Assembly: GCF_963921235.1 (NCBI RefSeq)
Contig: NC_086108.1
Coordinates: forward strand, 9,548,001-9,612,000
Direction of reading: 5' to 3'
Source of the DNA: Mobula hypostoma
Taxonomy: Eukaryota
Length of the DNA stretch: 64,000 nucleotides
Every line of letters starts with the position of its first letter. Position 1 is the first letter of the stretch. Below the pieces are notes generated by a model. The model was not told the DNA's origin. It searched no databases and saw only the letters and a list, made by a program, of their open reading frames with translations. A program made the position numbers and the translations under genes. Of this stretch, positions 18,801 to 42,034 are shown in pieces.

Positions 18801-20850
18801 TCCTGATTCTCTTTGGAACAGTTGAAGATCATTTAAAACTAGATTCTAAAAAGCCATAAGCCCATAAGATATAGGAGCAGAATTAAGCCATTTGGCCCGA
18901 CAAGTCTTCTCTGCCTTCATCATTTCATCTCAGCACCAATTTCTTGCCTTCTCCCCGTAATCCTTCATGCCCTGACCAATTAAGAGTCCATCTTGATTAC
19001 CATAAATAAGTTAATAAAATATAGGTTCATTTATGGCTAATTTATTATCCCTCTCAACCCCATTCTCCTGCCTTCACAGCCATTTGTGACAATGAATTCC
19101 ACAGATTCACCACCCTCTGGGGATGTCCTTCAATTCTGAGGATGTGCTCTGTGACTCACCCAATCATAGCTATGACAGCAATAATATGTAATTAATGTTA
19201 ATGTTTGAGATACTAAGGATTTTCTTTCTAAATCAAGTAAAAAAAATGGAAAAAAGGTTCAGCAAGTAGATTAGTTCCAGAGAATACTACTTGGCCCAAA
19301 GAATACTAAGGCTTTCAGAATCAGATTAGGTTTAATATCACTGGCAGAATTTTGTCATCTTTGCTGCAGCAGTACAATGCAATGAATAATAAGAGAAAAA
19401 TGTGAATTACAGTCCCTTTTTCACACATATATTAAATAGTTCAATTAAATTAGTACAAAAATATAAATTTAAAAAAGTAATGAGGTAGGGTTCATGGGTT
19501 CAATGTCCATTCAGAAAATCCGATGGCAGAGGGGAAGAATCTGTTTATGAATCGTTAAGTGTGTGCCTTCAGGCTTCTGTACCTCCTTCCTGATGGTAGC
19601 AATGAGAAGAGGGCATAGCCTGGGTGATTGTTAATGCCTTTTTGAAGCATTGCTCCTTGAAGATGTCCTGGATACTATGGAGGCCAGTGCCCATGATGAG
19701 TTGATTAAGTGTACAACTCTCTGCAGCTTACTTCAGACAGTTGTTCAGACCAGACAGTGATGCAGTCAGTTAAAACACTCCCATACAATCTTTTATTCAC
19801 ACCCACACAGGGCAGACCAGGTCTCAGTTTACCCTTTCAGTTGAATTAAACGGCGACTCCTTTATTTGCATCTTTGGAAACAGCTCTATTTCTATCTTTA
19901 ATATCTTTATTTTTCCCTTTCAAGGTTCTTATGAAGACCCTGACCTGGAGTTACATGCTGACTTCGGCTCTTTGTGAGAATGGGACCCCCTCTCGGGGAT
20001 TCATAACTGGCTGTTGTTCGGCACACTAAGGTCTCAGCCTAAGAGTCCGGTTCAGATTTGTAAGCCTAAGATCTCGGGTCTCTGGATACATGAACCTTTA
20101 AATTGCAAGAATTTCAAGTCAGGTATGGTGTGGCACTGCACAGGATTGAAATCAACTGCTGAGAGTTGTAAACTCAGTCAGCTCCATCATGGGTAGTATC
20201 CCAAGAGATCTTCAAGGAGTGATGCCTCAGAAAGGCAGTGTCCGTCGTTAAGGATCCCCATCAGTCAGGTCTTGCCCTTTTCTCATTCTCAGGAAGGAGG
20301 TACAGAAGGCACCCACTTAGTGATTCAGGAACAGCTTTCTCCCCTCTGTTATCCAATTTCTAAATGGGCATTGAACCCATGAACGTTACCTCCTTACTTT
20401 ATAAATTTCTGTGCTTACACTATTTATTTTAACTAGTTAATATACATAGTTTATATTGCATACTGCAATAGTTTCTTTTCTATATTTATCATGTATCACA
20501 TTGTACTGCTGCCACAAAGTCAACAAATTTCAAAACATATGCCAGTGTTACTAAACCCGATTCTGATTTAGGTTGAAAAGAGCCTGGTGATTCTACAAAT
20601 GAAAATCTGTACTTGTTAGTATTCTGCAAAATTCTACAAACTTTATGACAGAAGGACAATCATAGTGCACTGGTTCAATCTGAAAAGTTTCACTTGATCC
20701 TCTGCAATGGAGAAGTTTTAAAAAGTAACATTACAGATTGTATAGAAATAAATTGTTGCAATCTTCATATAGTATATCCTCCAAAGTTTTAAAATAGCTG
20801 AATTCTGCACTGTCATGACATGCAACAAAGCAGGTCAGATTTTACTGAAG

Positions 20851-22946
20851 CAACACACAAAGTTGCTGGTGAACGCAGCAGGCCAAGCAGCATCTGTAGG
20901 AATAGGTGCAGTCAACGTTTCAGGCTGAGACCCTTCGTCAGGACTAACTGAAGGAAGAGTGAGTAAGGGATTTGAAAGTTGGAGGGGGAGGGGGAGATCC
21001 AAAATGATAGGAGAAGACAGGATGGGGAGGGATGGAGCCAAGAGCTGGACAGGTGATAGGCAAAAGGGGAAAGGGGATACGAGAGGATCATGGGACAGAA
21101 GGTCCGGGAAGAAAGACGGGGGGGGGGGACCCAGAGGATGGGCGAGAGGTATATTCAGAGGGACAGAGGGAGAAAAAGGAGAGTGAGAGAAAGAATGTGC
21201 ATAAAAATGAGTAACAGATGGGGTACGAGGGGGAGGTGGGGCCTTAGCTGAAGTTAGAGAAGTCGATGTTCATGCCATCAGGTTGGAGGCTACCCAGACG
21301 GAATATAAGGTGTTGTTCCTCCAACCTGAGTGTGGCTTCATCTTTACAGTAGAGGAGGCCGTGGATAGACATGTCAGAATGGGAATGGGATGTGGAATTA
21401 AAATGTGTGGCCACTGGGAGATCCTGCTTTCTCTAGCGGACAGAGCGTAGATGTTCAGCAAAGCGGTCTCCCAGTCTGCGTTGGGTCTCGCTAATATATA
21501 AAAGGCCACATCGGGAGCACCGGACGCAGTATATCACCCCAGTCGACTCACAGGTGAAGTGTTGCCTCACCTGGAAGGACTGTCTGGGGCCCTGAATGGT
21601 GGTAAGGGAGGAAGTGTAAGGGCATGTGTAGCACTTGTTCCGCTTACACGGATAAGTGCCAGGAGGAAGATTAGTGGGGAGGGATGGGGGGGACAAATGG
21701 ACAAGGCAGTTGTGTAGGGAGCGATCCCTGCGGAATGCAAAGAGAGGCGGGGAGGGAAAGATGTGCTTAGTGGTAGGATCCCGTTGGAGGTGGCGGAAGT
21801 TACGGAGAATAATATATTGGACCCGGAGGCTGGTGGGGTGGTAGGTGAGGACCAGGTGAACCCTATTCCTAGTGGGGAGGCGGGAGGATGGAGTGAGAGC
21901 AGATGTACGTGAAATGGGGGAGATGCGTTTAAGAGCAGAGTTGATAGTGGAGGAAGGGAAGCCCCTTTCTTTAAAAAAGGAAGACATCTCCCTCGTCCTA
22001 GAATGAAAAGCCTCATCCTGAGAGCAGATGCGGCGGAGACGGAGGAATTGCGATAAGGGGATGGCGTTTTTGAAAGAGACAGGGTGAGAAGAGGAATAGT
22101 CCAGATAGCTGTGAGAGTCAGTAGGCTTATAGTAGACATCAGTGGATAAGCTGTCTCCAGAGACAGAGACAGAAAGATCTAGAAAGGGGAGGGAGGTGTC
22201 GGAAATGGACCAGGTAAACTTGAGGGCAGGGTGAAAGTTGGAGGCAAAGTTAATAAAGTCGACGAGTTCTGCATGTGTGCAGGAAGCAGCGCCAATGCAG
22301 TCGTCGATGTAGGGAAGGAAAAGTGGGGGACAGATACCAGAATAGGCACGGAACATAGATTGTTCCACAAACCCAACAAAAAGGCAGGCATAGCTAGGAC
22401 CCATATGGGTGCCCATAGCTACACCTTTAGTTTGGAGGAAGTGGGAGGAGCCAAAGGAGAAATTATTAAGAGTAAGGACTAATTCCATTAGACGGAGCAG
22501 AGTGGTGGTAGAGGGGAACTGATTAGGTCTGGAATCCAAAAAGAAGCGTAGAGCTTTGAGACCTTAAAAGTTCCTTTTAAGGTCCCTGGCCCCCACCGCT
22601 TTATTTTCACCATGGATGTCCAGTCCTTATATACTTCCATTCCCCATCAGGAACCGAACTCATTTCTGCATACCTCGACACTGTTTTATCACCCCTTGTT
22701 CAATCTCTTCCGACCTATGTTCGTGACACTTCTCACGCTCTTAAACTTTTCGATGATTTTAAGTTCCCTGGCCCCCACCACTTTATTTTCACCATGGATG
22801 TCCAGTCCTTATATACTTCCATCCCCCATCAGGAAGGTCTCAAAGATCTATGCTTCTTTTTGGATTCCAGACCTAATCAGTTCCCCTCTAGCATCTGCAT
22901 TCCCCTCTAGCATCTAACATTCCAGCATCTGCAGAATTCCTGTTGT
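20851..22946 (-). mobile_element. Penelope-like retroelement (RT + GIY-YIG endonuclease), 5'-truncated, with inverted 5' segment
   Basis: ORF 22539-21433 has RT motifs QTKGVAMG and YIDD and GIY-YIG-like VIY...LYISET. After one in-frame TAG the frame continues to TAA at 21244. 16-bp TSD TCAGATTTTACTGAAG at 20835-20850 and 22947-22962. Confidence 0.9.
20909..20946 (-). ncRNA. Minimal hammerhead ribozyme motif (Penelope-associated)
   Basis: UAGUC CUGACGA AGG GUCUCAG CCU GAAA C GUU GACUG: core CUGANGA/GAAA, stems I and II present, palindromic AACGUU in place of stem III. Confidence 0.7.
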
Positions 22947-23609
22947 TCAGATTTTACTGAAGGAACCTTTTGGTACACAAAGTAACTCTAATGAAAATAC
23001 TGAGGCCGCAAACTCATATAAGATTTTTGAAAGCTGAAAATCCTTTGTACAAGCAAGGCAAACCGAAATAAAGGTTTTATTTACACCCCAGGAACAAACA
23101 CAATTTCTCAGCTCCACATATAGGTGGGCTCACTTTACCTTTTGTTGCCTTTTCAACATCATGTCCCAAAGTCAACAAATATTTTTCATTATTGAAAAAC
23201 AGGCTGTGCCACATAAGGTGATAGCAAACTTTGTTCATAGACAGAACTAGCAACTGAAAAGAAAGAAAACCGAATTGTTTCCTGTGAAAACCTTTAACCA
23301 AAATAAAACGAGCCGTTATAAACTGATTGGGGCATATACACTCCTCAGTGGCCATTTTATTAGTACAGGAGTGGAACATTGCATGGTCTTCCGCTGGTTC
23401 AAGGTTTGACATATTGCGCATTCAGAGATGCTCTTCTGCCCGTCACTGTGGTAATGTGTGGTTATTTGAGTTACTGTCGCCTACCTGTCAGCTTGAACCA
23501 GTTTGGCCATTCCCCTCTGACCTCTCATTTACAAGGTGTTTTCACCCACAGAAATGCCACTCACTGGATGTCTTTCTGTTTCTCCCTCCAGTTACTATAA
23601 ACTCTAGAG

Positions 23610-23689
23610 CAGGGGTTCCCAACGTGGGGTCCACAGACCCCTTAGTTAATGGTAGGGGCCCATGGCATAAAAAAAGTTGGGAACTGCTG
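23610..23689. mobile_element. hAT (Charlie-like) ~80-bp MITE
   Basis: TIR CAGGGGTTCCCAAC with TSD CTCTAGAG/CTCCAGAG. Further copies near 10611, 35711, 36010 and 62726. Confidence 0.8.
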
Positions 23690-23894
23690 CTCCAGAGACG
23701 ATTACATGTGAAAACCCCAGAAGGTCAGCCGTTTGAGATACTCAAACCACCCTGTTTGGCTCAACAGTCATTCCATGGTCAAGGTCACTCAGGTCACACC
23801 TTCTCCATTTTCTGAACAACCGGACCTCTTGACCACGTGTGCATGCTTTTACACATTGAGTTGCTGCCACATGATTAGCTAATCAGACTTTGGC

Positions 23895-24416
23895 TTTTCG
23901 TTCCATCTGCCAAGAACAGAACTTCTGAGTGGCCAACCCAAGCATTTTAATTCCAATTCCCATTCCGACATGCCAGTCCATGGTCTCCTCTTATACCAAG
24001 ATGATGCCACACTCCAGATGGAGGTGCAACATCTTATATTCCTTCTGGATACCCTCCAACTTGATCGCATGAAAATAGATTTCTCCTTCTGGTTAAAAAA
24101 TTCCCTGCCCATCCCCTTTTTGGCCTCTTACCTCTTCCCACCTGCCTAGTACCTCCCCCTGGGTCCCCTCCTCCTCCTCTTTCTCCCATAGTCCACTCTC
24201 CTCTCCCATCAGATTTCTTCCTCTCCAACCTTTCCCACCCTCCTGGCTTTATCCATCACTTTCCAGCTACCCTCTTTCCATTCCCCCTCATTTTACTCAG
24301 GCATCTTCCTCCTTCCCTTCCAGACCTGAAGGAGGGTCTCGGCCTGAAACATTGACTGTTTATTTCCATAGATGCTGCTTGTCCTGCTGAGTTCCTCCAG
24401 CATTTTGTGTGTGTTG
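23895..24416 (+). mobile_element. Penelope-like 3' fragment nested in a Tc1-like MITE
   Basis: Reverse-complement similarity to 20851-21420. Mutated hammerhead at 24321-24358. Confidence 0.75.
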
Positions 24417-25689
24417 ATTAGATATTTGCAATAACAAGCAGGTGTACAGGTGCTCCTAATAAAGTGGCCACTGTGTACAATTATAGGAAAATAGCATTAA
24501 GATTGATGTATTATTCAATAGAACTGAACATTTCCCTGTTGTGCAGTAAAACTCACTCTAGACATGACAAAAATAGAAGGCCACCTGGCCCTAAGCCAGA
24601 TAATCTACAGAAATCTATTCCTGTAGTCTGTAACTAATCATTTACCTCAGCATCACAACCCACATGCAAAGAACCTGGAAAGACATCGAGGACTAATAAT
24701 GAAAGTTGAGTGTAAAGTTTGATCTCTGAGACTGCCAGCATTTAAAGATTTACTACCAGTGATTGAGGGAAGTATAAGGAATCAGAAGCTCACTTAAAAT
24801 GGCAACTTGTCAGATGGTGGCATAGGATATTATAATTTATTTCCCCACTTGCACCCTTCTGCCGTTCAGCCTGAATGGATTTAATTAGCAAAATATTAAC
24901 TACAATTATCCGAAGACTTAAAATCTAAGAAACTATTTAAATGAAAAATCCAACAGCCAAGTTAAATTGTCCTAACAATATAGAAGGGTTTTATCTTTTA
25001 TTTGTAACAGTATATAGATATTGAATGCACCAGCAATGAGTAGGTGGTGAGAATTCTATAATTAGTCTCACCAGTGTTATACCAGGCATCACAGCCTGAT
25101 ATGGAAAGACAATGCCTTTGAACAGAAAATCGACAAAAGGTAGTGGATTTGGCCAGTACATCATGGGTAAAGCCCTCCCAACCATTGAGCACATTGACAT
25201 AAAACGCTGTCGCAGGAAAACAGCATCCATTATCAGAGATCTTCACAACCCAGGCCATGCTCTTTTCTCATTGCTGCCTCAGGACTTGCACCACCAGGTT
25301 CAAAAACAGTTACTACCCTCAATTATCAGGCTCTTGAATAAAATGAAATAACTACACTCACTTGCCATTCCATTGAGATAATCTCTCAACAAATGATCTC
25401 ACTTTAAGGACTCCATCTCTTTATCTCATGCTCATGTTATTTATCATTATTCACTTAATATTTGCAGTTTATTCTCTTCTGCACTCTGGTTGATCTTTAT
25501 CTGATCCTTTTATAGTTACTATTCTATAAATTTGCTGAGTATGCCCGCAGAAAAAGGTATCCCAGGGTTGTAAGTGGTGACATACATGTACTCTGATAAT
25601 AAAATTTACTTCGAATTTTTCAGTGCTAGGATCTTTTGCCTGACCTTCACTCGGTCTCCACAGGAAATTCAAATGTGTGGATTGGGTCA

Positions 25690-26132
25690 CTTTTGAGTGT
25701 ATCTTTAGGACATTGGGTGCTGATCATGAAAACCACCATGACATTTCCCTATCATGTACCTTTTTTTTTTGGAAATTGTCTATATTTGTTACTTGAATTC
25801 ATAATTCAAGTCAGAATAACTGATGCCAAGATTAAGGAAGGCATTTTTGTTGGTCCACAAATCAAACAGATCATCAATGACAGGTAATTCAAAGAATTTC
25901 TAGTGGGACCTGAGAATAAAATATTTTTAGTTTAGTTGAACTACCGCAAAGGGTCAGTGCCATTAGACAATTAAATGCATTATATTCAATAAAAGTTAAT
26001 TTCTTGTTTCTCCAAATTCCTGTGTGATACAGGTAGCTTGAAATTATATTAGTATTCAGTTTCAAGCGGTCTAACATAAACAAAAAAAAATTATGAGGAA
26101 GCAGACTTCTGAAACAATTTGTTGTCCCCTGT
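25690..26132 (+). mobile_element. Chapaev3-like shorter deletion derivative
   Basis: Colinear similarity to 3775-3975 and 4315-4525. Remnant ITDAKIKEGIFVGPQIKQIIND. Confidence 0.7.
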
Positions 26133-27189
26133 AAGTAGATCACAGTTGTTCCTTACTTGAATTTACTTTTCTGGTTCAGTAATATTTAATGCCCTGTGTA
26201 ACAAAGTGCAATTTTCAGCCCAAACTTTTCAAAACATCTCCCAGTCTCAGCAGCAATCTTCAACAAGCTATTGTTGCACTCCAGAGATCCCACTGCATCA
26301 TTCTGAAGATTAGATCATCCAGCAAGGCTGCCTAGTATTCATTCTTCAACCATTATCACTAAAACAAGGTTACTCCTCTCTTTGCTGCATTGAGGATTGG
26401 GCCGTGGGTCTGCTTCAGGCTTGGTGTCTATGGACTCAGTTTTGTTCTAAATGCTATTTATTGTCTGCATGATTTGTTCCCCCCCCCCCGCACATTGGGT
26501 GTGTGTTGGTCTCTTTTTTTTTAAATGGGTTCTTTTGGGTTTCTTTGTTTTGATGCTGCCTGCAAGGAGAAGAATCTCAAGGTTGTAGAATGTACACATG
26601 CTTTGATAGTAAATGTACTATGAACCCGAACATTAACTACTTCTGGGAATCAGTAGTGTCCAAATTGACAAGCATTTTGGCAAGATCGTACCTAATGATA
26701 ACCAAAAAGCAGCATTTGAGTTAAGACAGTAGATCTCCATTTAGTGTACGAGGCCACCCAGGTATTAAGTACCACATACACACAAATAAGCAATTAGCAG
26801 GTCAGTGTGATGATTTGCCAGCTGCTGTGGGTACCTTCTGCCAGGAGGGAAGAGGGTATTTTTGCACGCCTTCTCTCCCCACCAGAGTCTACAGAACAGA
26901 CTGACTCATTGGATAAGGGGTGGAAGGGGAGCAGTGAGTTGGTAGCTGCTCTTCCCAACAGTGCTCAGCTGGAGGGGATTGAGAAGTGATCACCAATAGC
27001 TCATACTGCTCCAACCACATCGATGGCATGGCCAATAAAGCACACTAACACCTCTACTTCCTCAGAAAGCTAAAGATACTTAACATGCCCTCTGACCCTC
27101 ACTAATTTTTAATCAATGTCTAGGAGCCATGTATCTATTTTCTATCTGCACTATATTTTCGGGTTACATGTTTATTATGTTTATGATAA

Positions 27190-29646
27190 CACTGGGCAAA
27201 TTTTTCAAAAGTGTTGCTTCAATTTTTTTTTGTTTCTTGAAGCTGAACATAAATAATTTCAGACTACTTGTATCACGTAGGAATTTAGAGAAACAAGCAA
27301 TTAACTTTTATTGAATAGCATGTGTTTAATTTTCTAACGGCACTGATGCTTCAACTAAGATAAAAATGTTTTGTTGATGATTTTTGTTTGTACTCGGTGT
27401 CTGAGGCTTCACGCTTAAAACAGCCAGCATTGATGGATTCCAGTTGCCCTGATACCGTTTCTCCATGACCGCAATGTCCTGGTGAAACCTTTCACCATGC
27501 TCGTCACTGACAGTGCCAAGATTTGCATCGAAGAAGTCTAAATGGGAATGCAGAAAATGAATCTTCAGTAACATGTTGCACTTCATGGTTTTGTATGGCT
27601 GAAGCATGTTGTCAACCAGCTGCAAGTAGTTTGGCGCTCTGCAGTTGTTATGTACCCCTAGAGTTCATATTTTCTGTGGACTATCACTTGGGGGGGGGAG
27701 AGGAAGGGGGGGGAGAGAGAGGGGGGAGAGAGAAGGGGGGGAGAGAGAAGGGGGAGAGAGAAGGGGGGGAGAGAGAAGGGGGGGAGAGAGAAGGGGGGAG
27801 AGAGAAGGGGGAGAGAGAAGGGGGGAGAGAGAAGGGGGGAGAGAGAGGGGGGGAGAGAAGGGGGGAGAGAGAAGGGGGAGAGAGAAGGGGGGGAGAGAGA
27901 AGGGGGGAGAGAGAAGGGGGGAGAGAGAAGGGGGGAGAGAAGGGGGGAGAGAGAAGGGGGGAGAGAGAAGGGGGAGAGAGAAGGGGGAGAGAGAAGGGGG
28001 AGAGAGAAGGGGGAGAGAGAAGGGGGAGAGAGAAGGGGGGAGAGAGAAGGGGGAGAGAGAAGGGGGAGAGAGAAGGGGGAGAGAGAAGGGGGAGAGAGAA
28101 GGGGGAGAGAGAAGGGGGGAGAGAGAAGGGGGAGAGAGAAGGGGGAGAGAGAAGGGGGAGAGAGAAGGGGGAGAGAGAAGGGGGAGAGAGAAGGGGGGAG
28201 AGAGAAGGGGGGAGAGAGAAGGGGGGAGAGAGAAGGGGGAGAGAGAAGGGGGAGAGAGAAGGGGGAGAGAGAAGGGGGAGAGAGAAGGGGGGAGAGAGAA
28301 GGGGGGAGAGAGAAGGGGGGAGAGAGAAGGGGGGAGAGAGAAGGGGGGAGAGAGAAGGGGGGAGAGAGAAGGGGGGAGAGAGAAGGGGGGAGAGAGAAGG
28401 GGGAGAGAGAAGGGGGAGAGAGAAGGGGGGAGAGAGAAGGGGGAGAGAGAAGGGGGGAGAGAGAAGGGGGGAGAGAGAAGGGGGGAGAGAGAGAGGGGGA
28501 GAGAGAAGGGGGAGAGAGAAGGGGGAGAGAGAAGGGGGAGAGAGAAGGGGGAGAGAGAAGGGGGGAGAGAGAAGGGGGGAGAGAGAAGGGGGAGAGAGAA
28601 GGGGGGAGAGAGAAGGGGGGAGAGAGAAGGGGGGAGAGAGAAGGGGGAGAGAGAAGGGGGAGAGAGAAGGGGGGAGAGAGAAGGGGGAGAGAGAAGGGGG
28701 GAGAGAGAAGGGGGGAGAGAGAAGGGGGAGAGAGAAGGGGGGAGAGAGAAGGGGGGAGAGAGAAGGGGGGAGAGAGAAGGGGGAGAGAGAAGGGGGAGAG
28801 AGAAGGGGGGAGAGAGAAGGGGGGAGAGAGAAGGGGGAGAGAGAAGGGGGAGAGAGAAGGGGGGAGAGAGAAGGGGGGAGAGAGAAGGGGGAGAGAGAAG
28901 GGGGAGAGAGAAGGGGGAGAGAGAAGGGGGAGAGAGAAGGGGGGAGAGAGAAGGGGGAGAGAAGGGGAGAGAGAAGGGGGAGAGAGAAGGGGGGTGAGAG
29001 AAGGGGGGAGAGAGAAGAGGGAGAGAAAAGGGGGAGAGAGAAGGGGGAGAGAGAAGGGGGAGAGAGAAGGGGGAGAGAGAAGGGGGGAGAGAGAAGGGGG
29101 AGAGAGAAGGGGGGAGAGAGAAGGGGGAGAGAGAAGGGGGAGAGAGAAGGGGGAGAGAGAAGGGGGAGAGAGAAGGGGGAGAGAGAAGGGGGGAGAGAGA
29201 AGGGGGAGAGAGAAGGGGGAGAGAGAAGGGGGAGAGAGAAGGGGGAGAGAGAAGGGGGGAGAGAGAAGGGGGAGAGAGAAGGGGGGAGAGAGAAGGGGGA
29301 GAGAGAAGGGGGGAGAGAGAAGGGGGGAGAGAGAAGGGGGGAGAGAGAAGGGGGGAGAGAGAAGGGGGGAGAGAGAAGGGGGGAGAGAGAAGGGGGGTAT
29401 TTGATAGACAATCGATGTTATGGTTTCTCTGCAGTGTGTTTACTTTTTACAAGGACAGTTACAGACACAGAGAAGCACATACTCAGAGTCAAGATGGATT
29501 CGATCAATGAAAGACACCAGTGAGTGAGGTCCTGGTTTAAACTTTCAGTAGCCTGGAAAGGGGTGAGTTAAGATCATGATCAGCACCCCAAAATCCTCAA
29601 GATACACCCAAAAATATTCAGGAAGCAAAATCTTCGCTGTCCAGTG
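27190..29646 (-). mobile_element. Chapaev3-like transposon interrupted by a purine satellite
   Basis: CACTGG at 27190 and CCAGTG ending at 29646, flanked by TAA/TAG. ORF 27625-27326 is near-identical to the 4047-4310 remnant. Confidence 0.75.
27690..29397 (+). repeat. 1.7-kb homopurine minisatellite (G5-6 AGAGAGAA)n, 13-14-bp unit
   Basis: Directly visible. All purine on the + strand except a T at ~28995. Confidence 0.98.
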
Positions 29647-30289
29647 TAGTTGGTCATGTGGGTGGGTGTGTGGTAGAAGCAAAGAGTTTTAGTTACATTT
29701 TCATGCTTTTGTCTTTAGTTCTGTTGAGCTAAGGCAGTGAACTAGAGGTGATTTTTTTGCTTAGTGCTTAATTTATGCTTACAATTGCTTCAGTTAGCTT
29801 AATTACTTCAAAAAAAGCTTAAATATGTTTAGTACACTAAGACTATTTTGGTATATCACTAGTTTTAGCTTCATTAGTTTTTAAATTGTTCCAAGATTGT
29901 TTTGCTAGTTTCTGAATAAAGGATTCAGCGTATTCTTCAATTTTGGAGCCTTGTTATCGGATTGGATCAAAGACGCATCACATAGAATTACCCCCCTCCC
30001 CCACCCATCAAGCGGTGTCGGTTTGTTCTCACCACCTACTCATCAATGGTACAACCTCAGCCTTGCACTCGATGTGAGCAGGACCAAGGAACTAACCGGT
30101 GGCAGGGGGAGGAGGTAGACTCCCATGTATTCAAGATCTGCCCTGGGTCCAACACATTGATTCAATAATGAAGAAGCCACACTAGCAGCTCTACGTCATT
30201 AACAGTTGGAGAAAATATGGTACATCACCAAGAACTTGCAAGCTTCTATAGATGTATGGTGAAGAGCATTTTGACTGTTTGCATGTCGG

Positions 30290-30850
30290 CTTGGACTGAG
30301 GTTCTTTAACATCTGCCGGACGATGCTGAGGATGTTCTACAAGTCTGTGGAGGCCAGTGCCATCATATTTGCTGTTGTGTGTTGGGGCAGCAGGCTGAGG
30401 ATAGCAGACACCAACAGAATCAACAAACTCATTCGTAAGGCCAGTGATGTTGTGGGGATGGAACTGGACTCTCTGACGGTGGTGTCTGAAAAGAGGATGC
30501 TGTCCAAGTTGCATGCCATCTTGGTCAATGTCTCCCATCCACTACATAATGTACTGGGTGGGCACAGGAGTACATTCAGCCAGAGATTCATTCCACCGAG
30601 ATGCAACACAGAGCGTCATAGGAAGTCATTCCTGTCTGTGGCCATCAAACTTTACAACTCCTCCCTTGGAGGGTCAGACACCCTGAGCCAATAGGCTGGT
30701 CCTGGACTTATTTCATAATTTACTGGCAGAATTTACATATTACTATTTAACTATTTATGGTTCTATTACTATTTATTATTTATGGTGCAACTGTAATGAA
30801 AACCAATCTCCCCCTGGGATCAATGAAGTATGACTATGACTATGACTATA
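30290..30850 (+). mobile_element. Young Rex1/Babar-like LINE 3' fragment nested in an older Rex1-like copy
   Basis: Open ORF MLRMFYKSVEASAIIFAVVCWG...RKSFLSVAIKLYN and (TATGAC)n tail. Confidence 0.8.
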
Positions 30851-31105
30851 GATGTTCCAATGTACAAGATCAGAAGAGGCTGCAGATGGTTGTAGACTCA
30901 GCCAGCGCCATCACAAACACAACCCTCCCCACCAATGAGGTCATCTCCAACAGGCCATGTCTCAAGACCGAAGCATCCATCATTAAGGGCCCCCACCACG
31001 TAGCACATGCCCTCTTCTCGTTACTACTACTCACTGATTCAGGAAAGCTTCTTCCTTTCTGTCAGATTTCTGAATGGCCCATGAACACCATCTCCTTTTC
31101 CTTTG

Positions 31106-31675
31106 TGTAGGGTTCTCAGTAATACTCATCGTAATGTTAATTGTTAAGGCTGACAAAATGGCTTCTCTGTACTGTTAACTGCTGAGTAAGGGGTTCTCTG
31201 TAGCAGCATGTTTGGGTTATAATTAGTGATAATGGGACTTGTATTCATTTGCTAGCCAATGGAAGTCATGTTATTCTATCTGTATGTGCAGGAACCGGAG
31301 GAGAAGTGCGGGCTTTTGGTCGAGGAGAAGAGGTCGGACGTGAGTCGAGCGCTCTGGTAGATCACCGGGAGTGATCCCAGCTGAGGGTCGATGGAGTTCA
31401 GAGGATATCGACGGGAGGAACGGATACGGAATTTCGTGAACTCCAACGAATTATTTGTGCACAAAATTTATTGATTTGGCGCCTTTATTTTATTTGTTTC
31501 CACTAACCCATCACTGAGAAATCATTATAAAGTGTAATCATTTACTTGCCTATTGTGTACTGACTGATATTTTATGTCGTGGGCTTGTACCAGGGTGCGA
31601 TCACACAGTATCCACACCAACGCGATTACAGAGTTGGCGGGGTCAACGGCAGTCAATTGGGGCACAGTCGCTACA
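31106..31675. mobile_element. Solo LTR (570 bp)
   Basis: TGTAG...CTACA inverted termini with 4-bp TSD TTTG (31102-05, 31676-79), inside a Rex1-like 3' UTR. Confidence 0.7.
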
Positions 31676-32345
31676 TTTGCACTGTTTCGTAATTTATAGT
31701 AATTTTTGTCTTTGCATTAATTTCACATCCTATACAACAGTGATAATAAATCTGATTCAGATATGACAACTGCTCTGCCCATGACTACATAAAACTGCGC
31801 AGTGCTCGAAGACATGCAGAACTGTGAATGCTACAGCACAGTGCAGGCCCTTTGGCCCATGACATTGTGTTGACCTTTTAATCTACTCTAAAATTAATCT
31901 AACCTTTCCCTCCTGCGTAACCCTACATTTTCCTATTACTCATGTGCCTTTCTAAGAGTCTCTTAAATGTCCCTAATGTATCTGCCTCTACCACCATCTC
32001 TGGCAGGGAATTCTATGCACCCACCAGTCCCTGTGTTAAAAACAAAACTTACCTGACAACCCCGCTGTATCTTCCTCCAATCACCTTAAAGTTATGACCC
32101 CCTGTATTAGCCACTTCCACCGTGCAAAAAAGTCTCTAGCCATCCACTCTATGCCTCTTACCTTGTACACCTCTATTAAGTCACCTCTCAGAGAGGAAAG
32201 CCCTAGCTCATTTAACCTACCCTTATGAGACATGCTCTCTAATCCAGGCAGCATCCTGGCAAATCTCCTCTGCACTCTCTCTAAAGCTTCCACATCCTTC
32301 ATTCCTGTAATAACATCACAGCACATCATGAAAAGCAGCCTCCCC

Positions 32346-32651
32346 CGGGCCGGCTGGTGGCGCAATGACATCAGTGCCGGACTCTGGAACGGCGGTTCCC
32401 GGGTTCAAGCCCAGTCGGGGCCACTCCCAAGTACACTTTCCATCCATGCTGGGTTGAGTGTCGAGATCGCAACTTGACCTCGTAAAATAAAGGGAAAAAT
32501 ACTGCAAACTGTCTGTGTGAGGAGTGGCACGCAACACAGTCTCTCTCTCTCGCTTTGTGCCTTGTAAAGGCATGAAAAAGACATCGTACTGCCAACATCA
32601 CACACGCACGCAGACGCACAGATGCACATGCACACACATGCCAAAACAAAA
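32346..32651 (+). mobile_element. tRNA-derived SINE (second family)
   Basis: Box A TGGCGCAATG, box B GGTTCAAGCCC, (CA/CG)-rich then A-rich tail. Perfect 16-bp TSD GAAAAGCAGCCTCCCC (32330-45, 32652-67). Confidence 0.8.
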
Positions 32652-33359
32652 GAAAAGCAGCCTCCCCGTCATGGACTCTGTCTTCACTTCTTGCTACCTC
32701 AGTAGAGTTACCAGCATTAAAAACCCCACCAACCCCCAGACATTGTTTCTTCCCCCCCACCCTTCATCGAGTGGAAGATTAAAAGCTTGACAGTGAATAC
32801 AGTTCTACCACACTGTCATAAGACTCTTGAACGGTTCCCAAGAGTGATAAGGTGGACTCTCAACATCAATCTACCTCCTATAAGACCAATATAGGAAGCA
32901 GAATTAGACCATTTGGCCATCAAGTCTGCTCCACCATTTCATCATGGCTGATCCATTTCCCTCTCAGGTCCAATTTCCTATAAGACCCCATGGCCTTATT
33001 ATGCAATCTTATTGTTTTAAGATGCATTACCTCAATGCATCACTGTAATGAATTGATCTGCGTGAATGGTGCACAAATCAAGATTTCCTTCAATGTACTT
33101 CAGTAATTAACCAATTTTCCACACCTGCTTGCCCTTCCAGCTTAATTGTTTCCAGGATCCTCTTTCAGCTTATGGACAGTTCCCAGGAAGTGAACCCTTA
33201 TCATATTTGGGAAATTCCCGTATCAAGTTAACTACTACTTTCCAATTTTAATTATCTGTTTACCACATTAAAGCATGTCGATCTAGTTTATCATCAACAT
33301 AAATGTGCATATTAACTACAAAATAAAGGAAAGACGAGACAAAATAAAATTATTAGGCT

Positions 33360-34412
33360 TATGCAACATACACAAAATGCTGGAGGAACACAGCAGGTCA
33401 GACAGCATCTATGGAGAGGAATAAACAGAAGGGAGAAAGGAAGGGGAATATACCAGATAAGGAAGGTGAGTGGAGAGGAAGGAGGAAGGCTGGAAAGTGA
33501 TTGGTGAAGCCAGGTGGGTGGGAAAAAGTCAAGAGCTGGAGAGGAAGGAATCTGATAGGAGAGAAGAGCAGACCATAGGATAAAGGGAAAGGGGAACCAC
33601 GAGGGAAGCAACAGGTAGATGAGAAGCAGAAGGTCAGAGTGGGCAATAGATGGGGGAGGAGGAGGGAATGGGGGTAATTTTTTATTGGAAGGATAATTTG
33701 ATGTTCATGCCATTAGGTTGAAGGATACCCATACAGAATACACAGTGTTGCTCTTCCACCCTGAGGGTGGCCTCATCTTGGCAAAAGAGGCGGCCACAGA
33801 GCGACATGTCAGTAAGGGAGTGAGAATGGGAATTAAAATGTTTGACCACGGGGAAGTCCTGGTTGTGGCAGATGGTACAGAAGTGCTCAACGAAGCATTC
33901 TCTTAATTTATGAAAGGTCACCAATGTAGAGGAGGCCGCTGGAAGCACCGGACACAATCAACAACCCCAGTTGATTCGCAGGTGACTGTTTGGGGTCCTG
34001 AATGGAGGTGAGGGAGGCGGTATATGGGCAGGTGTACACTTAGGCTAATTGCAGGGATAAGTGCTGGAAGGGAGCGATCCCTGCTGAAAGCGGGTGCGGA
34101 GGGGGGCAGAGAGGTAAAGATACATTTAGTGGTAGGGTCCTTTTGAAGATGATGAAAGTTGTGGAGGATAATGTTTTTGATCCGGAGGCTGATAGGGTGG
34201 TATGCAAGGTCAAGAGAGACTCCATCACTATTATCACAACAGGAAGATAGGGTGAGTGCAGATATATGGGAAATGAAGAAGATACGGGCGAGGGCAGCAT
34301 CAACAGGAGGGAAACCTTGTTCTTTAGAAGAGGAGGACATCTCTGATATCCCGGAATGGAAAGCTACATCCTGAGAACACATGCAGCGGAAGCGAAGAAA
34401 CTGACAAAAGGA
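33360..34412 (-). mobile_element. Decayed Penelope-like 3' fragment
   Basis: Frameshifted homology to the 21.2-22.1 kb copy (CSQDVAFHS, HFNSHSH, EEQH..F.MG.LQPNGMNI). Confidence 0.8.
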
Positions 34413-36676
34413 ATTCGGGTTATGATTGACACCCAGAAGGTTTTGTATGAAGATAAATGTCAGGAGCTACACACATCAAGGACAAAGCACTGATCATTAT
34501 AATGAATAATCAAAAAGCAAAACATAATATGCAGAACTGTTCACAATTTTACAAGGAACTGGAGTACAACACTTGAAAATATTTTCAATTACAACTACCT
34601 CACTAGCATTGAAGGCTTGAAATTAGTTTGCACAAACTTGTTTAGTGTTAAATTCTAGTTTTTTCCCCGACATCTGCATTAATTTCATTGGATTTAAACT
34701 AGATCCCCATTTCAAAAAGAAATAAAAACTTGAATAATTTGCCACCTGACTATTTGGAAAACACTGATTCCCACGCTCCCCAGTACTAAAGTACTAAACT
34801 TTAAATACCTCGGTGTTATTTCGGAGAATCTATCCTGGGCCCAGAAAGCAAGTGTAATTGCAAAGAAAGCACAGCAGTACATCTACTTCCTTAGGAGTTT
34901 ATGGAGATTTGGCATGAGATCTAAAGCTTTGACAAACTTCTATAGTGTAGTGGAGAGTATACTGACTAGCTGCATCCTAGTCTGGTATGGAAACACCAAT
35001 GCCCTTGAAAGAAAAATCCTACAAAAAGTAGTGGATACGGCCCAGACCATCACAGGCAAGCCCTCCCCACTACCGAATACATCTACATGAAACACTATCG
35101 TAGGAAAACAGCATCCATCATCAGGGATCCTCACTACTCAGGTCATGCTCTCTTCTTGCTGCTGCGATCAGGAAGAAGGTACAAGAGCCTCAGGACTCGC
35201 TCCACTAGATTCAGGAACACTTATTACCCTTCAACCATCAGGCTCTTGAATCAAAAGGGATGAGTTCACTTTCCCCATCACTGAAATGTTCCCACAGCCA
35301 ATAAACTCAGTTTCAAGGCTCTTCCTTTCATGTTCCTGATATCTATTGCTTATTTATTATTTCTTTTTTTTTGTACTTGCAGTTTGTTGTCTTCTACATT
35401 CTGGATGAATGCCCAAAATGACTCTGTCATGGTTATTATTTGATAGATTTTCTTCTGGGCATAATAAATGAAGTTTACTTTAAACTTACTGGGGCCCACA
35501 CTAATTTTAAACTTACTAGGCGCACCAGAAAGTAATGTGTAATATCAAAAAAAAAGTCAATTAAAAATATTTCGAGTATACTAGTACATCCATTAGTCTG
35601 GAAAATCTTCCAGTCTGGAATCAAATTTGCCAGTGCCCTAAATCAGAGTTATACTGTACTAAGATCAGAGAAACCAGTTACAACTTTTCTCAAGAGGGCT
35701 CTTGACAGAGCAAGGGTGCCCAACCTAGGGACCACAGATCCCTCAGATAATGGTACAGGTCCATAGCATAAAAAGGCTGGATCCCCTGTCTTAGAGGAAG
35801 AGGTAAGAAGCTTTCTTTAGAAGAATTGATCAGGTTCTTCTCTGACATCTGCAGTTATTACAGTCCCCTAGTTTTAAATCACCAGATGGTAAAGTGCTAG
35901 AATTCTGGCCTACTATTATGTCCTTTAACTCTAGGTGTAGGACTCTAAACTTTTCCAACCTGAGTACTAATAACATAGCAATGACTGAAAAGAGAATGTT
36001 TCCACTTCACAGGGGATCCCAACCTTTTTTTTTTAACGCCATGGACCCCTATCGTTAATCGAAGGGTCTGTAAACCCAAGGCCGGGAACCCCTGAGAACC
36101 CATGGGAAGAGAAAAAAGGTTAATTTTTCAGGACCATGATATTTCCACCATCAGGTTATCAACTAAGAGAGGGTGTAAAAGTAGCTTACCAGGATGCTGC
36201 CTGGTTCAGATGGCACGTGCTATCATGAGAGGCTGGATAAATCTCCATTGTTTTCTTGGGAGTACTGAAAACTGAGGGGAGATCTGATAGAGGTTCGTAA
36301 GAGGCATAAGTAGAGAGGACAGAGAGTATCTGTTTCCCAGGGTTGAACTATCTAATACCAGAGGGCATGCATTGAAGGTGAGAGGGGGTAGGTTCAAAGG
36401 GGTTGTGAGGGGTAAGTTCTTTACTCAGAGTGGTGGATGGCTGGAATGCGCTGCCCAATATGGTGGTAGAGGCAAATACATGAGAGGTTTTTAAGAGACA
36501 TTTGGATAGGCACATGAATATAAGGAACATAGAGGGATATGCACATGGTATAGGTATGAAGCATTAATGTTCGGGTGTTTTTGATTTACTTTTTAGCCTG
36601 TTCCTGTGCTGTATGACACAAACTCCATTAATACCTTTCCTCTTGATGAGCTTTTCCAGATTACCAACCTCTACAG

Positions 36677-36758
36677 CAGGGGTTCCCAACCTGGGGTTCA
36701 CAGACCCTTGGTTAATGGTACGAGTCCATGGCATAAAAAAAAAGATTGGGAACCCTTG
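36677..36758. mobile_element. hAT (Charlie-like) ~80-bp MITE
   Basis: Same TIRs; TSD CTCTACAG/CTCTATGG. Confidence 0.75.
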
Positions 36759-37344
36759 CTCTATGGTATTTTACTCCTTTCAACAGAAAAACCTTAAATT
36801 TTACTTTTAAAAAAACAAGCCAAATAAAGGTCTAAAAGTATGTCAACTAACACTCAGTTGCAATACTGTTACCCAAGTGAGGTAGTCAAATTTCAAATAA
36901 ACACTAGGATGTTGAGCTCACAAACCAACTTGTCAGTTCTGCACTGCATGGAACTGGCAAACTGTCATCTTCTCACACCCCAAAGATGTGCAGGTTAGTA
37001 ACTTCATTGGCCACTATAAATTGCTCTCTACAGTCAGTGAGCAGTAGAATCCTGGGAAAGTATGGAGGATGTCAGGAGAATTAAAGTATGAATGTATGAT
37101 GGGATGTTAGTGAGAGCAGAATGTGGGACATGGGACTGTTTCGAAACTGTATTTCTATTACAAAAATGTTGACAGATTTCTGAACTTTACAGCCTTTCCC
37201 ACTGCCTCCCATTAAATGCAGAGGAGCTCCCTCTCCCCTCCGCCACATTAGTAACTACAGTATACATAGAAAAAAAAGTTCTCCATGATAAACCCACACC
37301 ATAGTGAAACCTTTGGGCTGGGAAGAGCTGTTAAAAATATAATC

Positions 37345-37952
37345 ACAAGAAAGTCTTCAGATGCTGGAACACTAGAGCAACACACACAAAACGCTGGAGT
37401 AACTCAGCAGGTCAGGGAAAATCTATGGAAATGAATAGACAGTCAACGTTTCAGGCCTAAACCCTTCTTCAGGACTGAGAAGGAAGGGGAAAAGACACCA
37501 GAATAAAAAGCTGAGGGGAAGGAAAGGAGGCTAAGAAGAAGGTGAAGGTGAGGGTGGGAAAGGCTGAAGAGGAAGGAATCTGATGAGAGGAAATTGGACC
37601 ACAGGAGAAAGGGAAGGAGGATGGGACTCGGGGGACAGGCAGGTGAAAAGAAGTGAAAGGTTAGAGTGGGAATAGAGGGGGGTGGGATTAATTCTTTTTA
37701 ACTGGAAGGTGGTCGATACTCATGCCACCAGGTTGGAGGCTATCCAGATAGAATATAAGGTGTCGCTTCACAGCCCTGAGGGTGGCCTCATCTTGACACA
37801 AGAGGAGGCCATGGACCGGCATGTCAGAACGGGAATGCGAATTGGAATTAAAATGTTTGGGAAGTCCCGCTTGAGGTGGATGGAGCGGAGGTGCTCGACA
37901 AAGCAGTCCCCCAATTTACATCGGGTTTCACCAAAGTAGAGGAGGCCGCATC
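37345..37952 (-). mobile_element. Penelope-like 3' fragment with terminal repeat
   Basis: Similar to 20851-21510; carries the hammerhead at 37440-37477. Confidence 0.8.
37440..37477 (-). ncRNA. Minimal hammerhead ribozyme motif (Penelope-associated)
   Basis: CAGUC CUGAAGA AGG GUUUAGG CCU GAAA C GUU GACUG: perfect 5-bp stem I and intact core. Confidence 0.7.
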
Positions 37953-39066
37953 AGGATAGCCTGTTTTCATTTCCCCCTCCAAACAGACTACAGTATTCAA
38001 GCAGTATGTCAACACTGTCCATTCCATGAGATGTCCCACACTCAACATGCCAGTAAAGGGATAGCTCTGAGTTCCGTAGCTCAGTGAGGAGTGGATGCAT
38101 TACTTGACCCAAAGTAGTCTTTGGGGTTCTGCAAGTCTGTGTCTTTATTGATGTTTTGCTGCACACTTGAGTGCTCGGTGGGAGGTGCTGATGCCTTTTT
38201 GCAGGTGGGGGAGGGGGGTTTGCTGCTTTGCTGCTGCTTGTGCGTGGAAGGGGGAGCTGGGGGAGGGGCTTTGGGGTTCTAACATTTGACTGTCATTCAT
38301 TCTTTAGGGCACTCCTCTGTTTTTGTGAATGTTTGTGAAGAAAAGGAACTTCAGGATGTATATTGTGTGACAAATGTACCTATTGAAACCAAACCAACAA
38401 CAACCTCTCAGGGAACCACCTTAAAATAAGTCATGGGGCAACTAATGGCAGAAGGGATCTTGGTAGAGGGCAGCGATGTGTGCCAAGAAAACCACCAGTG
38501 ACATACCTGCTATGACGATCCTTTTTTTTTAAAATTTTAATTCTAGCAGCTCTCCAGTTCCTGAGGACACATCCCAGGTTAGCAGTGATTACAAATTGCC
38601 CATTATATCCTGAAGGTGCAACAGCAAATACAGCTTAAATTTCACTTTTCTGACCAGAAATTGCATTAGGACCACCTGACCTTATAAAAGAGCACTGTAG
38701 AAATTGCACAAGCAAATAAAAACAGATGCCGGAAATCCAAAATAGACTGAAGGGTTGGCACTTCAGTGGGACTGGCAGCATCTGTCACAAACGGAGCAAA
38801 CACCACGAGGCGGTGACCTCCCATCAAAAGGTCACCATCCCACAGGGGTCGCATTGTGGGTCAATTCACAGCGATCAGACAGGGGGATCCAGTAGCCCAG
38901 TGCAGCGGCTGTTTCACTGCCTGCCTTGATCAATCTTTCCAGGATCTTCTGTCATTTTTTCTATTGAAATGCATAGTTTTAAAAGCTTTAAATAGTATGA
39001 ATAATGTCCTTATTGCAGTAGAGGATAATGCTTTATCAGTGATCTGGCTGATAAAACAGGACAATC

Positions 39067-39200
39067 AATCACTGTATTTATTTGATTATTAATACACAAT
39101 GTTGAACTTTAAATCCCAGTTTGAAAAAGAAGAAATCACTGTATTTATTTGATTATTAATACACAATGTTGAACTTTAAATCCCAGTTTGAAAAAGAAGA
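39067..39200 (+). repeat. Perfect 67-bp tandem duplication
   Basis: 39067-39133 is identical to 39134-39200. Confidence 0.95.
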
Positions 39201-39325
39201 ATTCATTGTACAATTCCTTGTTCTCCTGTAACCTGGACATCACTCTAGATCCATGCCTGGAAACTGCAAAGCACAACCTGAGTACCCAATGCTGAGTGGG
39301 TCAACCACACAAAGCCATTTGACAT

Positions 39326-40634
39326 AGTCAAAGAAAAGCTCAGTCTATCTAATCCATGCTGAACCATCTAAACTCCCTACTCCCATCAACCTACACCTGG
39401 ACCATAGTCCTCCATACCCCTACCATCCGTGTACCTATCCAAACTTCTCTTAAAAGTTGAAATCAAGCTCATATACAACACTTTGGCTGGCAGCTCGTTC
39501 CAAACTCTCACCACCCTGAGTGAAGTTTCCCCCTCATGTTCCACTTCTGCTTTTCACCTTTTACCTTTAGCCCATAATCTCTGGTCGTAGTCCATTCCAA
39601 CCTCAGTGGAAAAAGCCAGCTTGCATCAACCCTATCTATTCCTCTCAATTTTAAGGCCTCTATCAAATCTCTATATTCCAAGGAATAAAATCCTAATCTA
39701 TTCAATCGTTCCTTACAACTCAGATCCTCCAGAACCAGCAACATCCTTATAAATTTTCTCCGTACTCTTTCAATCTTATTTACATCTTTCCCTCAGATAT
39801 GTGACCAAAACTGCACACAATATCCCAGATTAGGCCTAACCAATGTCGTATACAACCTCAACATAATATCCCACCTCATTCTCAATAGTTTGATTTATAA
39901 AGGCTAATATGCTAAAAGCTTTCTTTACAACCCTATCTACATGTGCCGCCACTTTCTTTCAACAAATTATGGACCTGCATTCTACCACACTCCCCAGTGC
40001 CCTACAGTTCACTATACATGAATTACCCAGGTTGGTCCTACTGAAGTGCAACTCCTCGTACTTGTCTGCATTAAATTCTACTAGGCTTTTTTTTTCCAGC
40101 TGGTTCAGATCCCCCTGCAAGTCAGCAATCCATTACACCCCCATTCCTGGTGTCATCTGCAAATTTGCTGATCCAGTTAACCACATTAACATCCAGATCA
40201 CTGATACAGATGACACACAATAAAGGACCCAGTACCGATCCCTGCGGTACTCCACTAGTCACAGGCCTCCAGTCAGAGAGGCAACCACATACCATCACTT
40301 TTTGGCTTCTCCCACAAAGACGATGTCTGATCTGGTTTACTACCTCATCTTGAATGCCCAGCATCTGAACCTTCTTGACCAACCTTCCATGAGGGACCTT
40401 GTCAAATACCCTGCTCAAGTCCATGTCGACAACATCCACTGCCTTGCCATCATCCACTTTCCTAGTAACTTCATCAAAAAATCTATAAGACTGGTTAGAC
40501 AAGATCAAACACGCACAAAGCCATGTTGACTATCACTAACTAGTCCACATCTATCCAAATACTTATATATCCAGTCCTTAGAACATCTAATAATTGTCCC
40601 ACAGACTCACCGGCCTATAATTTCCTGGTTTGTT
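39326..40634 (-). mobile_element. CR1 LINE 3' fragment (RT)
   Basis: VDVVDMDLSRVFDKVPH...SGVPQGSVLGPLL...SKFADDT (ORF 40508-40122). Confidence 0.9.
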
Positions 40635-41124
40635 TTCATTATACAACTCCTTGTACCCCTGTAACCCAGACATCAGTTTAGAAACATGTCTGCAAACAGC
40701 AAAGCATAAACAGAGTACCCGATACTGTGTGGGTCAACCACACGATACCATCTGACATCATTAACATGGATGCCATTCGACAGATTTCAACTACCCTCGG
40801 GGGAGGGCAGAGCTTCAATAAAACTACACCTATGGAATAACCTAGTAAAGAAAGATAATGTCAAAAACAACAGTGGAAACTGCAGGCTAAAAGCAAAAGC
40901 GATGTCTGGGGTTATGGGTGAACACTGAGTGATGCTTTACACTGCTATTTCAACAAGCTGACAGTAAAATCAGAGAGTGGATGAATCCAAGTGCAGAGCA
41001 AAGGGCCAAGCCCATCCAGCTCCCACAAGAATTGCAATTTGGCAAGGCAGAATATCCAAAATTCACTAGACTTGGTCACATTGCATCAACATCTCTACTT
41101 TACCACTTTAGAGTTATTACTGTC

Positions 41125-41500
41125 CTATACAGGAGCTGGCAGAGTGGAGATAGGTTTCTATCAAAGGAGGTGCAAGACGCCCTTCCCTCTGATATCCTGC
41201 AGGTCACTCTTGGGCAAGGTGTATCACCTGCTTAGCCACCACCCTCCCCCCCACCGATCAGGGTCATGGCAGCAGGTGGTGGATGGTTGTGTGAGCAGCC
41301 GGTGTACATCACAAGCTTTGATTATGTGATCAATGACACACGGCTGGAGAGTATTGATGATGGTAGGATCACCTGTCTTGTAAAGACACTGCGCAGAAGG
41401 CAACAATGGCAAAGTACTTCTGTTGAAAAAGTCACCAAGAACAATCACGGACATGGAAAACAACGATCACCAATATCGTATGATACGGCACATAACAAAC
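41125..41500 (+). mobile_element. Short interspersed repeat (possibly RTE-related)
   Basis: Reverse-complement match to 42035-42400. Confidence 0.6.
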
Positions 41501-42034
41501 AAACAAACATCTGTAGCAAAATACACAAAGCAAAACAGTGTCAGCCATTGCTGAAGTAGACTTCAGGATAGATTGAAACTGTGCTGGATTAAAGTGGCGG
41601 GGCCCAGGCTCGAGAACAAAAAATGAACTGACATTTAGCCAACTTAAGTGCTGAGCCAGATTAAAAGATTAAGGCATTGAAGCCAAGGGTAGAGGACAAA
41701 CCATTGTTGAGCTCTCTACTCCATGTCAGCCCGTCCCATAGCCTGCATCTGATCCACCTCTACCATTGGGTGTGAGGTGCAGGTGTCTCAACCGACTGCA
41801 CTCACCTCAGCACTGACCTGGTTCTATGGCTATGGACTCATTTTTGGGGACCACTGATTGCGTTTCTGTGTATTACTGTCTACTGGTTTTATTGTTTGCA
41901 CGGTTTGTTCTTTTTAATAACCCCCGGCACATTGGATGTTTGTGTCTTTGTTGTGTGAGGTTTATCATGGATTTTATTGTTTCTGTTTTATGTCTGCCTG
42001 CAAGGAGATGAATCTTAAGGTTGTATATGATATA

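Follow-up and report, generated by a model that had tools for sequence, protein, structure and literature searches.

A stretch of 64,000 nucleotides from Mobula hypostoma (NC_086108.1, positions 9,548,001 to 9,612,000, hereafter the window, whose own numbering is used throughout) contains two minimal hammerhead ribozyme motifs, c1 (20946-20909) and c2 (37477-37440), both read on the minus strand and both located in sense within one intron of a Smaug/SAMD4B-like gene. Together, the evidence very probably identifies them as passenger hammerhead modules of two insertions of Penelope-like elements (PLEs), whose effect on the host transcript in terms of pre-mRNA cleavage is most likely nil or negligible.

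Direct reading of the sequence gives UAGUC-CUGACGA-AGGGUCUCAGCCU-GAAA-CGUU-GACUG for c1 and CAGUC-CUGAAGA-AGGGUUUAGGCCU-GAAA-CGUU-GACUG for c2. The invariant core is complete at both sites (C3, U4, G5, A6, G8 and A9, G12, A13 and A14, A15.1 and U16.1, with U as H17), while helix I comprises 5 bp (U.G plus four Watson-Crick pairs in c1, five Watson-Crick pairs in c2) and helix II is short, with 3-4 bp depending on the register. Helix III is formed by the contiguous A15.1 C15.2 G16.2 U16.1 (ACGU) without a loop, so that one molecule cannot close it and pairing would have to be intermolecular or long-range. In their core bases and in the pairing capacity of helices I and II, c1 and c2 agree with the hammerhead definition by sequence and secondary structure, from which they depart in helix III closure within one molecule. 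An earlier reading of the window, made from the letters alone and referred to below as the sequence-only reading, had placed two minimal hammerheads at these positions, with a stem III that a monomer cannot close, and the full cores, the 5-bp helix I, the short helix II and the uninterrupted ACGU in both copies bear this out. The cuts that it predicted, between 20914/20913 in c1 and 37445/37444 in c2, follow correctly from hammerhead numbering. With U at position 17 the ACGU palindrome is extended to AACGUU at 20914 and 37445, and A14 and U17 could pair in a dimer; judging from the two sequences, such pairing would stabilize the duplex, yet occupy both a core base and the cleavage-site base.

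The pattern CTGANGAN{4,30}GAAACGTT matched exactly twice in the 64-kb window, at c1 and c2, with 0 matches expected (100 shuffles). A covariance model (CM R1) built from 30 other copies in the same genome scored c1 at 66.8 bits (E 5e-19) and c2 at 44.2 bits (E 1e-11). When the window's own 3.48-Gb assembly was searched, with the reversed pattern as control, CTGANGAN{10,16}GAAACGTYGAC gave 43,470 + 43,623 = 87,093 matches against 9 in the control; the same pattern with a 4-bp helix I required gave 66,592 against 0, and the GUU form alone 10,632 against 4. The shuffles, the reversed-pattern control and the covariance model scores led to rejection of the idea that c1 and c2 are chance look-alikes rather than hammerheads, the probability of which is vanishingly small. 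Both sites owe their match to membership in a repeat rather than to chance; moreover, the motif occupies a fixed position in the PLE tail, and its architecture fits the published class of minimal hammerhead ribozymes (min-HHRs; PMC4209133). What speaks for a look-alike is the silence of Rfam, whose curated models had no match at the gathering score in the whole window and no hammerhead match even at E <= 10 in the 501-nt windows round c1 and c2. This silence is interpreted as curated models not extending to loopless minimal forms, rather than as evidence against the motif, and the published min-HHR class was likewise detected with its own relaxed descriptor (PMC4209133).

The same repeat is present at c1 and c2, and alignment to protein homologues indicates that each motif is located in the 3' tail of an endonuclease-bearing PLE truncated at its 5' end. 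The first PLE copy (20849..22626, minus strand) is 5'-truncated and carries c1 in its 3' tail, preceded by an open reading frame (ORF) remnant covering aa ~343/367-801 of ~803, i.e. the C-terminal part of the reverse transcriptase (RT), the linker and GIY-YIG, with a single in-frame stop at 21433-21435. The ORF at 21433-22563(-) is 53 % identical (E 3e-143) to aa 370-741 of an 806-aa homologue (P0006), in which RVT_1 is located at 291-479 and GIY-YIG at 708-751. Homologues longer than the window ORF numbered 161 at E <= 0.001, and among the best 120 of these 161 the Pfam annotations were repeatedly RVT_1 and GIY-YIG. A Pfam search of the window's PLE ORF pieces returned nothing at E <= 1, and PLE identity thus rests on the alignment to full-length homologues. 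A tblastn search with three such homologues mapped the remnant upstream of c1 to 22563/22626-21256(-), aa ~343-801, and located further PLE fragments at 34427-33688(-), 22576-22901(+), 15976-16146(+) and 62552-62922(+). The second PLE copy (37370..37950, minus strand), also 5'-truncated, is composed of a GIY-YIG remnant (37718-37950) and the 3' tail bearing c2.

The motif is found ~310 nt past the ORF remnant and ~65 nt before the 3' end of the element. Among 30 random genomic copies, the 3' end of the element lies ~60-70 nt beyond the motif and the upstream extent ranges from 0 to >1,400 nt, and such varied upstream extents are the signature of variable 5' truncation. The first copy is abutted by an inverted 5' fragment of the PLE RT (aa ~295-403; 22576..22901, plus strand, from tblastn), and the arms of this inverted arrangement (22506-22565 and 22834-22893) are 95 % complementary; an inverted 5' fragment is described as typical of PLE insertions in the relevant passage of PMC8557442. 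The presence of RT and GIY-YIG remnants directly upstream of the two motifs, as well as an architecture matching that in PMC4209133, upholds the earlier assignment of both to the minimal, loopless, dimer-type hammerheads of PLEs.

A combination of blastn and the covariance model detected seven full-length and three partial motif copies in the window, and only c1 and c2 have retained complete cores, the remaining five full-length copies being decayed. The decay substitutions cluster at CpG sites, with ACGU changed to ACAU or AUGU and the G12 context CCG changed to CCA. Within the intron, an antisense PLE 3' fragment, c3 (23883..24425, plus strand), contains a GIY-YIG remnant and a decayed hammerhead at 24319-24361 in which A9 is replaced by G (35.8 bits), and an antisense short copy, c5 (11675..11840, plus strand), has a decayed hammerhead with G12 and C15.2 altered (41.7 bits). 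An old PLE remnant in sense, c9 (33355..34427, minus strand), covers aa ~536-819 and has a tail without the hammerhead segment, and a partial decayed sense copy, c10 (5440..5590, minus strand), reaches a partial score of 10.8 bits. Beyond the intron, c8 (52990..53155, minus strand; 46.4 bits) has ACAU in place of ACGU as its single visible defect, c6 (44480..44640, plus strand) and c7 (49120..49280, plus strand) are decayed, and c4 (50480..50640, plus strand) is devoid of the 5' half of the motif; the last three were delimited by blastn and the covariance model. The motif of c8 (53061-53103, minus strand) has a partial inverted neighbour at 53109-53135(+). In c5, c6 and c8, the start of homology to the family all but coincides with the 5' strand of helix I (11726, 44531 and 53103, respectively), and several of the 30 random genomic copies likewise begin 0-20 nt from the motif; the start at helix I could be a preferred truncation or initiation point, or mark a short non-autonomous derivative.

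The two intact copies appear to differ in age. c1 is a member of the dominant family (median identity to the sampled copies, 92 %) and differs from the commonest 43-nt family variant at two positions, both of them CpG positions and one of them C17 to U. The best relatives of c2 are 75-81 % identical over 381 nt (40 of 7,155 candidates scored), and the motif is intact in one of its 11 closest relatives. These comparisons indicate that c1 is a fairly young insertion and c2 an old one. Both motifs have GUU, as opposed to GUC in 30/30 sampled family copies, and U17 in c1 and c2 is a decay product of the family's C17. The same explanation was considered for U11.1, as a decayed C11.1, and was rejected, since the commonest and youngest family variant already has U11.1. 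Retention of intact motifs in 1/11 relatives elsewhere and 2/7 copies in the window is as neutral decay of a ~38-nt motif would leave, and nothing in these comparisons indicates selection on the c1 and c2 loci.

The co-occurrence of the two motifs has to be viewed against their abundance in the genome. At a density of 19-25 motifs per Mb (about one per ~40 kb), the expected number of sense copies in a 41.1-kb intron is 0.39-0.52, and the probability of two or more is 0.06-0.09. In a spacing sample consisting of the first 100 matches listed, which span 3.65 Mb of contig C1, neighbours on the same strand were separated by no more than 16.57 kb in 19 of 98 intervals, in comparison with a Poisson expectation of 18.7 %. 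Two sense copies in one intron are the background state of this genome, and their co-occurrence is within expectation. The much lower rate of the GUU form (P ~0.002 for two per intron) was considered as a sign of enrichment and rejected, since GUU was singled out post hoc and is accounted for by GUC decaying at its CpG. The sampled genomic copies have a median identity of 92-96 % and the commonest variant retains all of its CpGs, which suggests a large and fairly recent expansion of a PLE, or of a PLE-derived repeat, in this genome. Ten adjacent opposite-strand pairs within 1.5 kb were present among the same first 100 matches listed, and close inverted motif pairs have likewise been noted for Schistosoma (PMC4209133). 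Intact or near-intact motifs often form head-to-head inverted pairs 40-90 bp apart, such as 109233(-)/109307(+), 1935492(-)/1935548(+) and 2546805(-)/2546844(+) on contig C1; these very close pairs are an extreme form of the inverted 5'-truncated PLE arrangement.

The host gene was delineated by tblastn. The first coding exon of the Smaug/SAMD4B-like gene (42500..42697, minus strand) encodes aa 1-66 with a Vts1-like domain, which is also found in the ORF at 42497-42934(-), and the next coding exon (870..1385, minus strand) encodes aa 65-236; the exon boundaries define an intron of ~41.1 kb (1386..42499, minus strand) that contains c1 and c2, both in sense. The 67-residue coding part of the ORF is 97-98 % identical to chondrichthyan proteins named 'protein Smaug homolog 1-like' and also matches Callorhinchus entries named SAMD4B. 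For the second exon, identity amounts to 92-95 % with the shark 'Smaug 1-like' paralogue, 85 % with Callorhinchus SAMD4B and only ~61 % with the other shark paralogue, which makes the SAMD4B label reasonable. Contigs of 7.6-9.0 kb from four runs of one study, the RNA origin of which is only guessed, cover 42502-42800 with 0 differences and stop matching the window at 42502, within 2 nt of the tblastn-inferred exon 1 boundary; they are consistent with a spliced, expressed mRNA. The contig comparison extended over 29600-42800, and among the pieces listed none spans 37440-37477; assembled contigs do not show RNA ends, and this observation carries no weight for or against cleavage. The earlier placement of both motifs in sense within a single SAMD4B-like intron is thus confirmed by exons at 42697-42500 and 1385-870.

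According to the explanation favoured here, two independent 5'-truncated PLE insertions, c1 fairly young and c2 old, would by chance have entered the long first coding intron of the gene, both in the sense orientation. The hammerhead module belongs to the PLE itself, as part of its terminal repeat or 3' region, and, as proposed in the literature, may process element transcripts as a domain-swapped dimer, in which helix III (ACGU/ACGU) and both helix I duplexes would be formed between two copies. In the host intron, the copies would drift neutrally, c1 and c2 having kept the consensus by luck and their neighbours having lost it mostly at CpG sites. The likeliest outcome would be no or negligible cleavage of the host pre-mRNA and no regulatory role.

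The sequence-only reading had gone further and proposed that c1 and c2 could pair in cis over 16.5 kb, cut the intron after GUU at both sites and thereby affect the processing of the SAMD4B-like transcript. In such a model, pairing would be through ACGU and swapped helix I strands. In its favour, both cores are intact, the helix I strands are cross-complementary, the two copies share one intron and the sense orientation, and dimer cleavage has been reported for the min-HHR class (PMC4209133). The idea that c1 and c2 act specifically on each other in cis to process the host transcript found no support, their spacing being commonplace (19/98 intervals at or below 16.57 kb) and both copies being decaying relics with a CpG-derived GUU. 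With 87,093 motifs in the genome, such spacing arises at the Poisson rate, and neither enrichment nor specificity is apparent.

The pairing itself was assessed by folding with nearest-neighbour parameters, which ignore tertiary contacts of the core and protein chaperones. By our own derivation, a double hammerhead of this type is a domain swap in which helix III (ACGU/ACGU, 4 bp) and both helix I duplexes are formed between the copies. The explicit c2+c1 double-hammerhead structure has an energy of -11.9 to -12.5 kcal/mol, as compared with a total of -18.5 kcal/mol for the separate monomer folds and -27.0 kcal/mol for an alternative extended dimer. When +-100 nt of native context was included, the ensemble probability of helix I or helix II was ~0 for both c1 and c2, the motif bases being predicted to be sequestered by the flanks. 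The antisense copies in the same intron, c3 (3.3 kb from c1) and c5, form predicted duplexes of -142 to -198 kcal/mol when paired with c1 and c2; two such energies, -160.6 and -197.7 kcal/mol, can be set against about -69 kcal/mol for shuffled partners and -43.5 kcal/mol for c1 with c2. In these models the double-hammerhead fold is disfavoured, which lowers the odds of cleavage in cis, and c3 and c5 would be strong antisense pairing competitors in the pre-mRNA.

Published activities point in the same direction. Single min-HHRs did not cleave, and dimeric or trimeric constructs were weakly active, mostly at non-physiological Mg2+ (PMC4209133). The hammerhead of the Poseidon element of Anolis is described in the passages of PMC11167929 devoted to it as cleaving only with the element protein added and as dispensable for insertion in vitro, and the same passages report no public RNA-seq reads starting or ending at its cut site. 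A 2019 review (PMC6765202) reiterates the view that dimer cleavage requires copies in tandem. Three points thus speak against cis pairing of c1 and c2, namely a disfavoured double fold, antisense copies that bind far more strongly, and published PLE hammerheads that are weak or protein-dependent. Even where an intronic ribozyme does cut, splicing need not be impaired, given that the exons are tethered to Pol II. There is no support for cleavage of the host transcript in cis, which is highly improbable.

Several points weigh against the passenger explanation. Neither motif departs from the known sequence requirements, the NUH rule admitting U at position 17. Complementarity between the helix I strands of c1 and those of c2 makes a heterodimer sterically possible. 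The folding energies omit core tertiary contacts and any protein chaperone, and a rough ideal-chain estimate gives a cis effective concentration over 16.5 kb of ~0.1-1 uM, which is not negligible in relation to the dimer affinity of about uM suggested by cofolding. In addition, the many young copies (median identity 92-96 %) may mean that the PLE protein is expressed.

A milder alternative, which we regard as unlikely, is that in the presence of the PLE protein either motif dimerizes with another motif-bearing nuclear RNA, or with the other copy, and is cleaved sporadically and harmlessly with no measurable effect on the host. Intron RNA is degraded in any case, and the gene would therefore be unaffected. 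In favour of this alternative, copies bearing the motif are very abundant, recent activity of the PLE is indicated by young copies, and cleavage by the Anolis Poseidon element PAc is protein-dependent (PMC11167929, in the part concerned with the assay). The folding and antisense-competitor arguments apply equally here, and no RNA-seq ends were found at the PAc cut site in the same study. A broader extension, considered very unlikely, is that PLE hammerheads are a genome-wide source of co-transcriptional intron cleavage, acting via protein-chaperoned double hammerheads over kilobase distances. A genome with at least 87,000 sequence-intact min-HHRs is expected to contain very many long introns in which two or more of them lie in sense; if such cleavage took place, it would burden fitness or serve as a regulatory input, intact copies would show an orientation bias as a result, and the SAMD4B-like intron would be one instance. 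The passenger explanation remains by far the most probable.

Other features of the window include a 1.7-kb tandem array at 27693-29397 with a 13-nt purine unit (GGGGGAGAGAGAA-like), present in ~126 copies with 95 % matches. The array is open in all six frames, and the gene strand would read it as a 1.7-kb polypyrimidine tract inside the intron. Transposon debris is recognizable in ORFs at 40125-40529(-), 7386-7631(+), 34734-35087(+), 44969-45238(+) and 47487-48164(-) that match RVT_1 or ALKBH8_N; RVT_1 was found in one ORF (E 2e-12), while the Pfam domain ALKBH8_N was found in four (E 1e-6 to 2e-4) and probably marks another repeat family, not a gene.

Among known systems, the closest to c1 and c2 are the min-HHRs of PLEs (Cervera & De la Pena 2014, PMC4209133), which share with them the type I topology, an open helix I (4-5 bp), an additional nucleotide left unpaired between A9 and 10.1, a palindromic 15.2-16.2 and a loopless helix III; the register with the extra A is supported by family variants ending in GCCC before GAAA. 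Location in the terminal or 3' region of an element encoding RT and GIY-YIG is also common to both, as are a prevalence of single 5'-truncated insertions, massive copy number, consensus families and close inverted pairs. They differ in that the published class has a highly conserved G10.1-C11.1 pair, whereas c1, c2 and the commonest family variant have U11.1, which forms a G.U wobble, or A-U in the shifted register. C11.1 variants coexist in the genome, and U11.1, being shared with the commonest variant, is a family trait, while U17 sets c1 and c2 apart from the C17 of their own family. The published layout is a tandem of two pseudo-long terminal repeats (pLTRs) ~3 kb apart, whereas neither the c1 nor the c2 insertion is a pLTR-ORF-pLTR unit and the nearest intact same-strand partner of either motif lies 16.5 kb away.

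Xenopus has a reported ~9,000 copies (PMC4209133), and the at least 87,093 in this genome exceed that number about tenfold. At this scale a single locus matters little, c1 and c2 being two among tens of thousands of retroelement-borne minimal hammerheads. With a complete core in at least 87,093 motifs (about 25 per Mb), the genome is a good natural data set with respect to in vivo cleavage by PLE hammerheads and selection against intact sense copies in introns, and the load is large enough for in vivo activity to be tested through orientation bias. A 2026 preprint derives tandem animal retrozymes from PLE pLTRs, describes them as depleted from Xenopus introns and samples one chondrichthyan (10.64898/2026.07.22.740005). 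A limited literature search found no published description of this shark PLE hammerhead family.

The Poseidon element PAc of Anolis carolinensis, as presented in the PAc passages of PMC11167929, is likewise a vertebrate endonuclease-bearing PLE whose hammerhead is devoid of helix III; its motif differs in overlapping the ORF start in the upstream pLTR, and its cleavage was assayed. Newt satellite 2 and Schistosoma Sm-alpha (Forster et al. 1988, cited in PMC4209133) resemble c1 and c2 in having a helix III too weak for a monomer, so that a double hammerhead is formed from two copies per transcript. Their helix III has 1-2 bp with a small loop, loop-loop tertiary contacts are made, and the tandem repeats are a few hundred nucleotides apart; in comparison, c1 and c2 are without loop 3 and without tertiary loops, and are separated by 16.5 kb. 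The amniote intronic hammerheads of RECK, CTCL and DTNB (De la Pena & Garcia-Robles 2010, as summarized in the relevant section of PMC6155905) also lie on the sense strand of a protein-coding gene intron and, according to the same summary, are thought to be retroelement-derived. That summary presents them as canonical, monomer-competent and conserved at orthologous positions across birds and mammals. In contrast, c1 and c2 are minimal, have no closable helix III and are members of a repeat family in which most window copies and most relatives of c2 have decayed. The min-HHR class has been known since 2014, and c1 and c2 add further members to it.

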